Assembly (NCBI RefSeq): GCF_017348835.2
Contig: NZ_CP072315.1
Source: Escherichia coli
Lineage (GTDB): Bacteria; Pseudomonadota; Gammaproteobacteria; Enterobacterales; Enterobacteriaceae
Direction: 5' to 3' (one strand)
Length of the DNA stretch: 64,000 bases
Of the stretch, positions 52,701 through 58,700 are shown piece after piece. Position numbers: made by a program. How positions within the stretch are numbered: the stretch's first letter is position 1; every line of letters begins with the position of its first letter.

Positions 52701-55700
52701 TAGCGAGCAGCTTCTTACTGGGGTGACAGGCTACGTTGTAGATAAAAAGACAACGAGAACTGACAAGCATGGCGAATCGCATACTGACTATGACTACAGG
52801 CCGGTCGATGGGGTAATAGGCACTGAGACGATGTCGCAGATGCACTATATGCGACAGCTGGATGTCGAGGTATACCCGTCAGCGAAAGGAGCAAAGCAGG
52901 TTCTGAAAGTGAGTATGCAAAGCAATGCACCTGTGCCGTCAGACAGCATTGCTTATTCAGCAATGATCGACGCCTTTACTGATAAATTTGATGCGCCGCT
53001 GCGTTCCGGAAATTATGTTGCAGTGATCCCCTGGAACTGAAAGCAGACGGCGGGAAGAGAATGTTCAAAAGTGACTTTTGGACACGCACATAAACGTGGC
53101 TATCGCCCTCCCCCATTAAAATCATAAAGTCGGTAAAGATCGCCCATCGTGATGGAATTGGGCTTATTAATGATTAGATACTGTAACTGTTCTTTATGTT
53201 GAGTACTGGCGGCTGCATTCATAAGCACTTCCAGGTAGAACTTGTAGCCTATGCTTCGCTCTGAATACATATACTGGAACTGCATCAGTAAAATGCCTGA
53301 CATAACATACAACAGCAGCAGACTGAGTAACACAGTGCTATCAGGCTGTTCCAGTGCCATACTGACATACCCTGAACCCAGAATGCACAGAAGCCAACCC
53401 GTCATTAGAGCAGGCACCCTACGACTCAGACGTTCATAACAACGTTTTATTACGGGATCCCGGAGATACTTTTTGTCAGGTATCCCCGTTGCCCTGATGA
53501 CGAAGTTACTGAGTATCGACATCTTTTTTCCTTCTGGACGCTCTCAGTCAATAAATCAGGCCAGGCGCTCATTGAAAGCTACCACGAGCTGCGAATCGGG
53601 ATTTTTTACCAGTTCGGGCCGGATAACTTTTAGTTGCCTCGTTGGGGCGAGCTCATCTGTAGGCCTGATGGTGGTATTACCCGGCCCCTTGCGGGTACTG
53701 TCGGTGTTTACCTTGAGCTTTTTATTTCCCAGGTAGCTTTCCATCTTTTTAGAGATGGTGTCACCTGTGGTCGCAACACCAGAGAGTTCCTTTAGTTGTT
53801 CACCTTGATCCATTTGTACCGATGACATCAGAAATACGATTCCTGGATCGTTTTCCGTTCCACAGGCTCCGTACTGACATTGTGCAGCGAAAACGGGCTG
53901 TACACCTACAGCAACCAGCATTAACGTACTCAGTAAAGTAGATTTCATACACACCTCTTACAGTCGGAAAAGTTACTTTTGCGCAGCGCCCATTTGGGTC
54001 ACCAGGTTTTCCGGGCTCAGCCACCCCGTAAATAACTGCGGTTTGCCGCTTAGTGTCACCATGGTAGGAGTACCTTGCAGCGGGATTGTTGAGGCCACCT
54101 GGAAATGCGATTTGATAATGTTTAAGCAAGCCTCATCAGGACGTCCTTCCGGGATAGTTGAAACCGGATTCATCGCTGCATCCAGAGCTTCGTTTGGCTT
54201 TGCTGAACACCAGATTTTGGCCATGTTCCCGGCTACTACCGAGTTCAGTCCTGCACGTGGGAATGCAAGAAACTTAATCGAAATACCGGCATCAAGATAA
54301 GACTTCAGATCATGATGCAGTTTTTGGCAGTATCCACAGGTTATATCGGTAAAGATAGCAAGCCGGTATTTTTCGTTTGGTGATTTGTAGTCGATGGATT
54401 TTGTTTTGGATGCGAATTCCCGGACGCCCATTAAAATGGCCTGCTCAGTGGTGTTTACCACATCTTTACCTTTCACGTGGAATAAGCTTCCGGTAAAAAT
54501 GTAATCTCCGTCTTTGCTCACGTAACTTACCCCCTCCCTGGAAATCACCGTAAAAATATCTTTTACTGGCGAGGGTTCGACGTGCTCGATTGAAAGCCCA
54601 ATGGCTTTGAGCTTATCCCGGGCTGCATCTGGCAGTACCATTGTATTAACCGGCTCGGCATTCATCGTGAAGGCGGTACTTAATGAAAGAAGTAATACCG
54701 ATGCCTTAATAATTTTTTTCATTTATGCTCCTTGAATCGAGCACTAATATTATCACGCCCAAAAATTCCAGAATTTTGCTTAAACGCTTAAATCAACGGG
54801 TAAAGCCGAAAGAAAGTCGATAGATATATGGGAGAATAGATAAAACGTAGATTCAGTGGAGAAATCGTTGTGTTTACACCACCAGCAGATGATGTGAAAC
54901 CTATTCCCGTTCCTGATGAGATTTACACTCAGTGCATTACGGATGCCGCCCGCTTCTTCGGAATTGATGCCGAACTGGTTTTTACGTTGTTTGACAATGA
55001 AGGCGGTAAGGTTGGTACTTTCAGCAGGAATACTAACGGCACTTATGATATTGGCCCGATGCAGATCAACTCATCCAATCTGCCTGAAATAAAAAAGCAT
55101 TTCCCGACTGTAACGTGGCGGGTTCTGGCTTACGATGCTTGCGCTAGTTTCTGGGTTGGAACATGGTGGCTCTACAGAAAAATTGTTGATCGCAAGGGCA
55201 ATGTGTTTGAAGGGATTGCAGATTACAACAGCAAAACCCCAAAGGTACGTGCAAAGTACATATTTAACTTCATGGTAAAGTACAATCGCCGGATCCAGCA
55301 GCGTAACGGGATGGGTGAGCTTTATCAATGGACCCAACAACCTCCTCGATACAATGGCCATATAGCTAAAAATGTCCCGGAGCAAAACCCGACTCCTGTT
55401 GTTAAATAAATTCAACCTGATATTACAGAAGATCATCGAGTAGCTTGGGTACCCCCCCGCAAAAAATTCGCATAGACTCAGGGGTAATAAATTGTCTTTT
55501 TCTGCAAGAAATATATTTAAGATTCTCTCTTCTTTCTTGATGCAGAAAAGCCCTCTTCATGAAGAAGTATGTGTTCCTGAAGAAACAACAGCTGGTTTAT
55601 GGGGCCCTCTCCCTGATTCGCATGTCGTGCTTTTCTTAGATTTCGATGGGGTTTGTCACAGGTGCAAAAATGAAACCTTTGAGCGAATGCCATTGGTGGA

Positions 55701-58700
55701 AAAATTACTGGATAAATGCCCTTCCATGGTGATTGTCATCTCCAGTTCGTGGCGTGAATGTGCCAGTATAACTTACCTGAAATCTCTTTTCCGGCTACCT
55801 TATAGAGACAAAGTCATAGGTGCTACCGATTCGGTATATTTAAAACCTAATCAGTCAGGTGTGCGGGCTGCTGAGTGTGAGGACTTTGTATTTTCACATC
55901 GAGTTAAAGCATTTATCTGCCTTGATGACGACGAATCATTATTCCCGGTCGGTTATCCACATTTGCAAAAAACCAATTATTACACCGGCCTCACCGAATC
56001 TGATCTTGCAGCTCTTAACACCAGGTATCATCTGCTTATGAAACGTTGGGCTTCCTGAATTAAAGTAACTTTTACGGAGAGCATGCCCGCATTATCAGTT
56101 CTATGCTTCTCCATTTCTGCCCCGGGTCAAAGCATTGCACAGTTGGAAGAAAACATGCCGGTCTCTTAAGCTTGCTGCTCAGTTTGGTTCCGGTGCTGAA
56201 AAACCTGCCAACGGTGCTTTAGGAATTCAGTATTGATGGGTTTACGCAGCGGCTTAATAAACTCTCCTTGATATGCCGCTAAATCATGATCTACCGCCAA
56301 AGCTTCAGCGAGAATGTTAACCTCCAACGTCACCGGATGAATGGCAATCATGTTTGCGTCGAAAAGATCGTGTATATCATGGCGTAAGAGCAACCCATTT
56401 GTATAATGGTCTACTCCTCCGTTACGATGCTCCATCAGATGAGCAGCCTCAGTGCGCTGGCGCAGTCTAGAGCCTGTAATCACACATTGGTCATAACAGT
56501 TGTTGCGGACGGCTTCTGCAAATGAGGCCTGATCTGGTCGTGTCTCGACAGTTGTCTTACTACCCTTACGCTTACCCGGTACAGTAGTTTCATCAGGAAT
56601 ATTCGGCTGAAGCTCCTTTTCTTCTATACCATCAGTCTTCATAGCGACCATAATCGCGGCCGGTGGAGATTTAGGCTGATCTTCCTGCGATCTTTCGCGG
56701 CCACCAACTGGATACCCTAGAAAACCCTCAATGATCTCTAGTGGAGGTAATGTAGCGTTTGAACGTGCATAAATAGCGAACTCTGCGGCACGTCCGCCGG
56801 GAATATATCTACGTACCAGTATTGGAAGAGAGGCTTCTTCATCTGGTTCCTCTTTTTCCGACAGGATTATTCGTTCGGTGAGACGGGCTGAATTTTTTTT
56901 CATTTCACTCAACAGTCTATTGCGTTCTTTTACCTTTCGGTCATTATCCTCCAACATCTTACGATGACTAACCTTAGCCAGATGGTCTTCCAGTTCCTGT
57001 ATATATTCGGGATCGATAGTGTCAATTAGACCGAACGCCATCAACCGCTCCCCCCTTGTTTTACAAGATTCTAGCCGAACGCGAATGTACTCCTTACGCT
57101 TGGCCATCAAATGTTCTTTTTGTTTTTTTTCTCGAATTACACGGAGCTGAGTATTGTAATTAGAATAAACGGTTTCGCTATTCTGCTCTGTCTCTAGAGC
57201 AAATTTTTGTAGGTGTTCACGTAGTTTTTTACGGGTATTTTTGGGGGCATGCATTACGGTACGCTCAATGTATGAGCCTGTGCAGCGTAAAGAAAGTACA
57301 GTTTCAGCATGGGAATAACCAGCATTGAGACGATAGCGGGCAATTTTAAGCAAATTATTAAAGTGTGCACCATTACATATACCTAGTTCTTCCAAGACAC
57401 GACGTTCTCTATCATTAATAGATGGATGGTTAATATCTTTTACTTTGTTTGCCATGTCCTGTGTCTCAGTGCCTATTCAGCCGGAACATCTACTACATAA
57501 AGAACGAGATTGTACAGAAATCAGCTAAGTTTATGAATAAAAAAGGCCGCAAATTTATACTTTGCGGCCTTCACTGTTTAACACCATATTTTAGTAAATA
57601 CGTTTAATTTTCATTAGGTTATATTTGAAACTCACCTACCTTTTATTTTCATTAAGCCACTGATCCGCTTTATCGACACGTGACTGGTAAGGCTCATTTG
57701 TGTTGCTCAGCTCTGACTTCATGTACTGAATGAATTCATCTGCTTTCTGAGGCCCAAAGCGTGGGTCATCCGTCAATTGCTGCCGGATAGCCCTTTCAGA
57801 GTTCTGCGCTGCATTCGCATAAGTCGAAACGCCGTCGCTGCTAATACTCTGATACCGGTCACTTACAGCTGCGACGCCATCAGACATCTGCATGTGATTA
57901 AGGACTTTACCCTGGAGAGAATCAGGCATATTTGCAGGGTTAGAGGCATCATTTGCTATCGATGTCTGGGTTTGAAGGATGCCCGCTCCCGTAAGCATCT
58001 CATTTACCGGTTTCGCCCCAACGCTGGTTAGCGTATCCGAAACAAATTGCTGGCCCCCGAGTAGCGCACCAGAAATCGCGCCCCGCTCAGTGTTGGCCTC
58101 TATCTTTTCCCCAACCAAGCGATCTGTGACGGTCTGAGTGCGGTTACCAACGAGACCACCGCCCGACCCACCCTCTCCTAGGTTTGCCCGTACGACTGAC
58201 TCAAGTGAACCATCAGCTCTGTTATGAGTGTTGAAACTGCTATGGATGCTCTGAACGTCATTCATACTCCAGTTAACGTTATAGTTACCCAGTTCATTAA
58301 GGATCTTCTGGGTATCCGCTTTGAGCTGCTCTCTTTCGGCACCGGTAGCCATGGTGCTGGCACCATAGGTAAAGACAGCTTGCTGTGCCAATTCAGCTCG
58401 CTTATCGTCCCGGCTTAAGTTCGGGTTGTTGGCAACACGACTAAAGTAGTTATCAGTGTTATTAGATAAGCCACGAACTTGACCGCTCTGATACATACTG
58501 TTCAAAGCAGTGGCTCGTTGATCCATTCCATCACCAACCACCCGACCTCCGGTAGCCTTTTCCAGATCGTTAAATGTGCCTTCTGCATTTCTGACATCCT
58601 GACCTGAATTGACGACTTTCTCTACACCCTGATTATTCAGTACAGGGCCATTCGTTTTGAGAGAATTGAGCACATTCCTTTCTTCATCAGAATAAGTGCG

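Follow-up and report, generated by a model that had tools for sequence, protein, structure and literature searches.

Gene content of the locus and its variable slot

The window analysed here, a 64,000-nucleotide stretch of Escherichia coli DNA (contig NZ_CP072315.1), belongs to an IncHI2 plasmid and carries, beside conjugation genes, two convergent open reading frames (ORFs). One, at 55492–56058 on the plus strand, is named 'HAD domain-containing protein' in RefSeq; the other, at 56166–57455 on the minus strand (ATG at 57455), encodes 429 amino acids and is named 'HNH endonuclease signature motif containing protein'. An original prediction made from the sequence alone had recognised an HNH motif in the latter and HAD phosphatase motifs in the former, and had proposed that the pair could form an anti-restriction or defence-type accessory module rather than transfer machinery. 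Many IncHI2A plasmids from E. coli and Salmonella (e.g., pTJWQ005) match the window with 100% identity over the HAD–HNH stretch. In PLSDB, each of the two genes was found in about 510–515 plasmids at ≥99% identity, and 512 of about 515 carriers had an intact HNH gene. Both genes are under purifying selection (omega 0.13–0.39; 0.13–0.36 for the HNH gene), and neither is a chance ORF.

The HNH gene occupies a variable cassette of about 1.49 kb (56049–57539; BLAST breakpoints 56048/56049 and 57539/57540), which holds this gene and a promoter-like site only. When compared with plasmid R478, the breakpoints are sharp and the flanks of the slot are 97.7–98.6% identical on both sides. No opposite-strand ORF of at least 50 amino acids lies inside 56049–57539, and the cassette is flanked by neither direct nor inverted repeats, so it has no transposon-like ends. 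The right edge of the slot is marked by a predicted intrinsic terminator of trhG (57542–57572, minus strand; inverted repeat I6, 100% complementary) with a 12-pair stem, including six GC pairs, followed by a T-run at whose end the cassette starts. This terminator is conserved in R478. A consensus scan placed a sigma-70 promoter-like site (TTCATA-17-TACAAT, a consensus match only) at 57509–57537 on the minus strand, with the HNH start codon following after about 50 nt. Since the terminator and then the promoter-like site separate trhG from the HNH gene, the latter would be its own transcription unit, outside the trhF-trhH-trhG transfer operon.

The slot is bounded by the HAD stop codon and the trhG terminator, and its contents differ from lineage to lineage. 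It is empty in IncHI1 and IncHI1B-type plasmids (about 256 PLSDB records), where the HAD gene converges directly on trhG at a distance of 246–370 bp. In R478 and about 430 similar PLSDB plasmids, a 1.73-kb segment carries other cargo (NC_005211, locus L002, 7374–8951), namely a gene for a 353-residue HNH protein of family PF01844 (WP_011152987) and, 10 bp downstream, one for a YrhA-family protein of 168 residues (WP_000654195, NF038335). This cassette shares with that of the window its slot, its breakpoints and an HNH-superfamily nuclease as cargo, but it lies on the opposite strand, comprises two genes instead of one and encodes an unrelated protein: BLASTP detected no similarity between the two HNH proteins. 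In L018, which represents a third lineage of IncHI2-like plasmids with about 93% backbone identity, a 402-residue allele of the window's HNH protein occupies the same slot and orientation. The slot is thus a recombination hot spot, and the HNH gene a self-contained, lineage-specific cargo cassette within it. As the gene is not conserved across IncHI plasmids—being absent from IncHI1, IncHI1B-type and R478-type IncHI2 plasmids—and is cut off from the transfer operon by the terminator, it is not core transfer machinery, in line with the accessory status originally predicted for it.

Two further observations concern the R478 cargo. The C-terminal 210 residues of its HNH protein match two PHROG families of unknown function (E about 1e-63). 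The HNH and YrhA-family genes are possibly a nuclease/inhibitor pair; a toxin–immunity assignment, with YrhA as a SUKH-type immunity protein, found no confirmation, as the YrhA-family protein has no Pfam match and the SUKH papers retrieved do not contain the word YrhA.

Sliding-window identity to R478 is 98–100% in the backbone and drops to 85–94% on either side of the cassette, leftwards as far as about 55300 and rightwards over about 57540–57700. Relative to R478-type IncHI2 plasmids, the window thus has a diverged recombination patch (55300–57700), whose inner flanks include the whole HAD gene. Given this drop in identity and a synonymous divergence (dS) from R478 far higher in the HAD gene (0.305) than in trhG (0.044), the HAD allele came in with the same diverged patch as the cassette, a case of linkage that does not speak for a shared function. 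The palindrome AAAGTAACTTT (56062–56072) directly follows the HAD stop codon and lies at the slot's left edge. It is also present in R478 and occurs twice, once as AAAAGTTACTTTT, in the empty IncHI1 spacer (around 5481–5493 and 5560–5572 of locus L005). It may serve protein binding or recombination, or may be a product of chance.

The HAD gene itself encodes 188 residues if translated from TTG 55492, or 172 from the RefSeq start, ATG 55540. The TTG start is plausible, because the 16 upstream codons (55492–55539) are conserved as protein in two other lineages, R478 and L018. In the homologues from IncHI5 and IncHI1B/FIB plasmids, the N-terminal extension is a hydrophobic, membrane-anchor-like segment. 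The product matches Pfam HAD_SAK_2 (PF18143; E 9e-20) over model positions 1–138 of 139, and motifs I (D50-x-D52), II (S84) and IV (D145-D146) are invariant in eight homologues down to 29% identity, which bears out the HAD phosphatase motifs of the original prediction. Full-length profile match and intact catalytic motifs are shared with the HAD_SAK_2 domain of 'Swiss Army Knife' RNA-repair proteins; unlike these, however, the HAD gene product stands alone, unfused to kinase or ligase domains, within an IncHI backbone cluster.

A HAD homologue was present in every IncHI lineage examined (IncHI2, IncHI1, IncHI1B-type, and IncHI5), at a constant position beside lytic transglycosylase and thioredoxin-fold genes. 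Amino acid identity to the window's protein amounts to 86% in R478-type IncHI2 plasmids, 61–63% in IncHI1 and IncHI1B-type plasmids, and about 40% in IncHI5 and IncHI1B/FIB Klebsiella plasmids. The HAD gene is therefore ordinary conserved IncHI backbone, and we infer that its product, a predicted phosphatase, functions independently of the HNH gene. Asked of the pair as a whole, the question of core versus variable gene content has a split answer: all related plasmids have conserved the HAD gene, whereas the HNH gene is variable and retains its profile match.

The HAD/HNH neighbourhood tolerates insertions. ISVsa5 interrupts the HAD gene of one K. pneumoniae IncHI2 plasmid and leaves the HNH gene intact (NZ_CP124874, locus L026, 993–2600), IS1 lies between the lytic transglycosylase and HAD genes of pSDE-SvHI2 (NZ_MH287084, locus L025, 1038–1735), and insertion of an mcr-1 transposon between DsbC and this HNH gene has been described (PMC5748712).

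Domain architecture and relatives of the HNH protein

The nuclease part of the HNH gene spans 56166–56585 on the minus strand (residues 291–429 plus the stop codon). Pfam HNH_2 (PF13391) matched residues 324–373 over the entire model (positions 1–66 of 66; E 3.6e-10), and 21 of 22 relatives likewise matched at E ≤0.001. In an alignment of these 22 relatives, H339, N353, and H362 are invariant, as are C324, G328, and D366. The HNH motif of the original prediction is thereby borne out, and a catalytic histidine acting as general base, a structural asparagine, and a metal-ligand His/Asp are all present. With its triad intact, the 429-residue protein can be assigned by sequence to HNH_2 as a predicted nuclease.

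A profile built from the 22 relatives retrieved VcaM4I (E 1.8e-5), an EVE-HNH restriction enzyme of known structure, and brought the two motifs into register: H339, N353, and H362 fall on H224, N241, and D250, residues that have been assigned to catalysis (PMC7897488), such that the third catalytic position is a histidine here versus an aspartate in VcaM4I. An AlphaFold model of the protein (mean pLDDT 80.6) contains a confident beta-beta-alpha nuclease domain at 303–429, the core of which—strands 335–339 and 354–358, helix 359–366—is predicted, not solved, at pLDDT >90. When this model was compared with the PDB using Foldseek, the nuclease domain alone was matched. VcaM4I and TagI came out on top (probability 1.0), followed by EcoKMcrA and ScoMcrA, all four of which are modification-dependent restriction enzymes. 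Sequence and model alike thus show a nuclease domain of the type IV (modification-dependent) restriction kind. Weaker matches were obtained with the NCBIfam model PT-DNA_restrict (E 0.0034, far below the curated cut-off) and with HNH models of PADLOC. Searches of Pfam, NCBIfam, PADLOC, and PHROGs linked neither the HNH nor the HAD protein to a known anti-restriction family, and nothing supports the anti-restriction role once envisaged for the pair.

In contrast to the nuclease domain, residues 1–290 (56586–57455, minus strand) have no known fold. AlphaFold predicts a four-helix domain (15–68), two long helices (72–130 and 149–193), a three-helix bundle (210–246) and a disordered linker (254–302); the 'long charged region' mentioned in the original prediction is real and corresponds to the two long helices plus the linker. 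A separate model of residues 1–255 reached a pLDDT of 86, and the alignment of the 22 relatives revealed two conserved motifs in this part, RLxAFGxI and LVRRYIPGxxxxEF. Beyond the nuclease domain, Pfam matched nothing in any of the 22 family members; for this N-terminal part, a profile search against PDB sequences returned nothing, and Foldseek against AFDB50 returned self matches and fragments only. No modification reader (PUA/SRA/EVE/YTH, DUF3427, sulfur-binding, NEco, or winged helix) was recognisable in the protein, nor were NUMOD, AP2, or other homing-type DNA-binding modules detected by Pfam in the 22 members. A helix-turn-helix suspected by eye at 'GYSHAETVLSLRCTGSYIERTV' was confirmed by no tool.

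The protein shares a good deal with the NTP-independent type IV enzymes VcaM4I (EVE-HNH), TagI (SRA-HNH), ScoMcrA, and EcoKMcrA: a C-terminal HNH domain of the HNH_2 subfamily, the order of N-terminal module, linker and nuclease, and a single gene without a methyltransferase. Unlike in these enzymes, however, its N-terminal 290 residues are predicted to be all-helical, with long, coiled-coil-like helices, and match no reader. Because the search for such a defining domain came up empty, we do not class the protein as a type IV restriction enzyme and regard modification dependence as putative.

The two halves of the protein appear to have different histories. Between the window and L018, nucleotide homology spans the HAD gene and the HNH domain up to 56583 and then collapses over the N-terminal 290 codons, a part swapped between lineages. 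Nuclease-domain divergence (92% nucleotide identity, dS 0.31, omega 0.36) is at the level of the backbone genes in dS (0.28–0.49; omega 0.05–0.10), whereas synonymous sites in the N-terminal part are saturated (pS 0.74, dN 0.42), arguing that the N-terminal module is an old, separately exchanged allele. Both halves are nevertheless under purifying selection. G+C content is 0.38–0.40 over 57000–57750 (the 5′ part of the HNH gene and the promoter region) versus 0.46–0.53 in the flanking backbone, consistent with a foreign origin of the N-terminal module. Taken together, we hold these structural and evolutionary statements about the HNH protein and its slot with high confidence.

The C-terminal domain is widespread, being common to 4184 cluster representatives among public proteins, while the full architecture occurs in only a handful of proteins, all from Enterobacterales, where the nuclease is almost confined to mobile elements, large conjugative plasmids among them. 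Two full-length relatives, P0007 and P0008 (38% identity), adjoin type I hsdRMS genes. Elsewhere, P0004 lies between ccdAB and a KAP NTPase gene, P0005 in a small integrase/resolvase islet, P0026 among phage-type nucleotide-metabolism genes, and P0027 beside plasmid replication genes. P0009 and P0012 are found at one fixed place in phage-plasmid-like contigs, each about 100 kb long (L016 and L017, 5457–12608), after a YafQ/ParE-like toxin gene and before genes for a tailspike (Peptidase_S74) and a GpA-type terminase. At none of these sampled loci (P0004, P0005, P0007–P0009, P0012, P0026, P0027), all outside the IncHI slot, was the HNH relative accompanied by a HAD gene, nor do the relatives have a conserved partner gene in common. 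A directly upstream ORF of about 90 amino acids was considered as a partner; it is common only to the P0004 and P0005 loci (41% identity) and is absent from the window and the other relatives. On these contexts, the family would best be described as mobile-element cargo with a partial defence association.

The P0007 locus, in Salmonella (L019, 8628–13224), also includes a gene for a 1171-residue helicase (AAA_11/AAA_12) fused to a PLD nuclease and a 259-residue HNH_2 gene, and resembles a compact, typical defence island. A second HNH_2 paralogue is found in IncHI2 plasmids of both types, near hns and outside the window (WP_000784387; NZ_CP059425, locus L003, 5224–6405). It encodes 285 residues, is 44% identical in the nuclease domain, and is preceded by a 102-residue ORF with two CxxC-type zinc-finger motifs.

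Candidate functions of the HNH cassette

What might such a cassette do? The most likely reading, which we hold at about even odds or slightly less and by analogy, is that the 429-residue protein is a solitary, restriction-like accessory nuclease. It would cut both DNA strands as a dimer held together by the HNH domains, like VcaM4I, and the helical N-terminal module would either select the target or hold the nuclease in check. VcaM4I itself dimerises via its HNH domains and is auto-inhibited by a helical linker; its HNH domain is toxic when set free (PMC7897488). Restraint by the N-terminal module would likewise explain how cells tolerate the enzyme without a partner inhibitor gene. The targets would be incoming foreign DNA from phages or rival plasmids, to the gain of plasmid and host. 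The nuclease domain of the type IV kind and the location of some relatives beside type I restriction-modification genes make a defence-type role reasonable.

Several points weigh against this proposal. Defence genes were neighbours in only two or three of about ten contexts sampled, the others being phage-plasmid-like or replication regions, and the NCBIfam and PADLOC matches are weak and cover the nuclease domain only. The approximately 510 carriers are near-identical plasmids; their high number therefore reflects one successful lineage and not repeated selection. In the literature searched (IncHI2 and HNH, R27 Tra1, IncHI2 defence), we found no functional study of either gene and no experiment on the 429-residue protein.

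A bolder version of the proposal, which we regard as unlikely though worth stating, holds that the protein represents a new family of solitary restriction-like nucleases carried by enterobacterial mobile elements, in which an all-helical sensor not described before replaces the modification reader and is swapped between plasmid lineages as a specificity cassette, with the HAD–trhG junction serving as a dedicated hot spot for nuclease conflict cargo. In that role the junction would resemble the variable hot spots of SXT/R391 elements, which are related. If the helical module proved to be a DNA or modification sensor, it would be a new type of reader among two-domain restriction enzymes.

The strongest competitor is that the gene is selfish: a homing-type HNH gene that would cut the empty HAD–trhG site in its relatives' plasmids, enter it as the break is repaired, and bring the host no gain. 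Much of the slot's anatomy would suit it. The cassette is intergenic, between convergent genes, with its own promoter-like site; it is cleanly present or absent at one fixed site in close relatives; and two unrelated HNH cassettes occupy that site—features shared with the free-standing HNH homing genes of phages, at one site of which differing nucleases can likewise be found. The flanks, that is the HAD gene and the 3′ end of trhG, are far more diverged than the backbone, like co-conversion tracts, and in phage-plasmid-like contigs, too, members of the family lie between conserved genes. The protein nonetheless differs from phage homing enzymes in nuclease subfamily and domain order, its nuclease domain being of the type IV restriction kind and C-terminal, and it has none of the homing-type DNA-binding modules sought. 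Moreover, its relatives lie at many unrelated loci, restriction-modification islands included, and ordinary homologous recombination with a diverged donor explains the flank divergence equally well. IncHI plasmids are mutually incompatible, making the co-residence needed for homing rare. On balance we consider homing improbable; were the gene only a selfish passenger, the finding would be an ordinary one.

The restriction-like proposal overlaps with another reading, which is thus not a clean alternative to it and to which, in its specific form, we give rather little credence: that the nuclease acts in plasmid-versus-plasmid conflict or in conjugation, hitting incoming or competing conjugative DNA (in the manner of exclusion or fertility inhibition) or transferred DNA during mating. 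The position of the gene directly downstream of the trhF-trhH-trhG operon would fit such a role, as would the near absence of the nuclease from anything but mobile elements of Enterobacterales, mainly large conjugative plasmids, and the second HNH_2 paralogue of IncHI2 plasmids. A strong predicted terminator nevertheless stands between trhG and the HNH gene, plasmids that lack the gene (IncHI1 and R478-type) are typed as conjugative by MOB-suite, and no known exclusion or fertility-inhibition protein is similar to the 429-residue product.

The nuclease-plus-phosphatase module of the original prediction is very improbable: the two genes are adjacent, their alleles share a diverged patch and HAD omega (0.22–0.39) is raised over that of core transfer genes (0.04–0.10), but the HAD gene stands without any HNH neighbour in the roughly 256 plasmids with an empty slot as well as in IncHI5 and IncHI1B/FIB plasmids, keeps its position whichever cassette is present, is convergent with the HNH gene in a separate transcription unit, is disrupted in the plasmid bearing ISVsa5, whose HNH gene is intact, and has no counterpart beside the sampled HNH relatives. 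HNH cleavage leaves 5′-phosphate and 3′-OH ends, which are no substrate for a 3′-phosphatase. Equally hard to credit is a toxin of an addiction or toxin–immunity pair, suggested by analogy with the closely spaced nuclease and YrhA-family genes of R478 and by the toxicity of free HNH domains of this class (PMC7897488), given that the window's cassette has neither a second gene nor an opposite-strand ORF of that minimum size, that no partner is conserved among the relatives and that, with no Pfam match for the YrhA-family protein, even the R478 pair is not established as toxin–immunity.

Among the major carriers of multidrug and colistin resistance in E. coli and Salmonella are the IncHI2 plasmids of this lineage. 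If the restriction-like proposal holds, a plasmid-borne nuclease of this kind could shape which phages and competing plasmids their hosts accept, and thereby influence plasmid persistence and the outcome of phage therapy. The slot polymorphism (empty, HNH_2, or HNH plus YrhA) offers a simple marker for IncHI2 sub-lineages. Already known were the generic RefSeq annotation of the HNH gene and the HNH_2 domain itself, an established family.

Surrounding region of the plasmid

To the left of the HAD gene lie the lytic transglycosylase gene (54870–55409) and genes for DsbC/DsbA-like proteins. To the right, outside the cassette, trhG (57636–61589, minus strand) encodes a TraG_N-family protein of 1317 residues and is the last gene of its transfer operon. 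No second copy of the HNH gene was found in the window by tblastn, and Rfam revealed no structured RNA near the HAD and HNH genes, its matches being confined to a resistance region that makes up the left three quarters of the window (1–49000). This region contains at least seven copies of a 240-residue IS26-type transposase ORF, a class 1 integron attI/aminoglycoside leader (RF02912) at 13205–13279 beside an integrase-sized ORF of 337 residues (13369–14382), and an IS10 RNA-OUT at 42308–42377.

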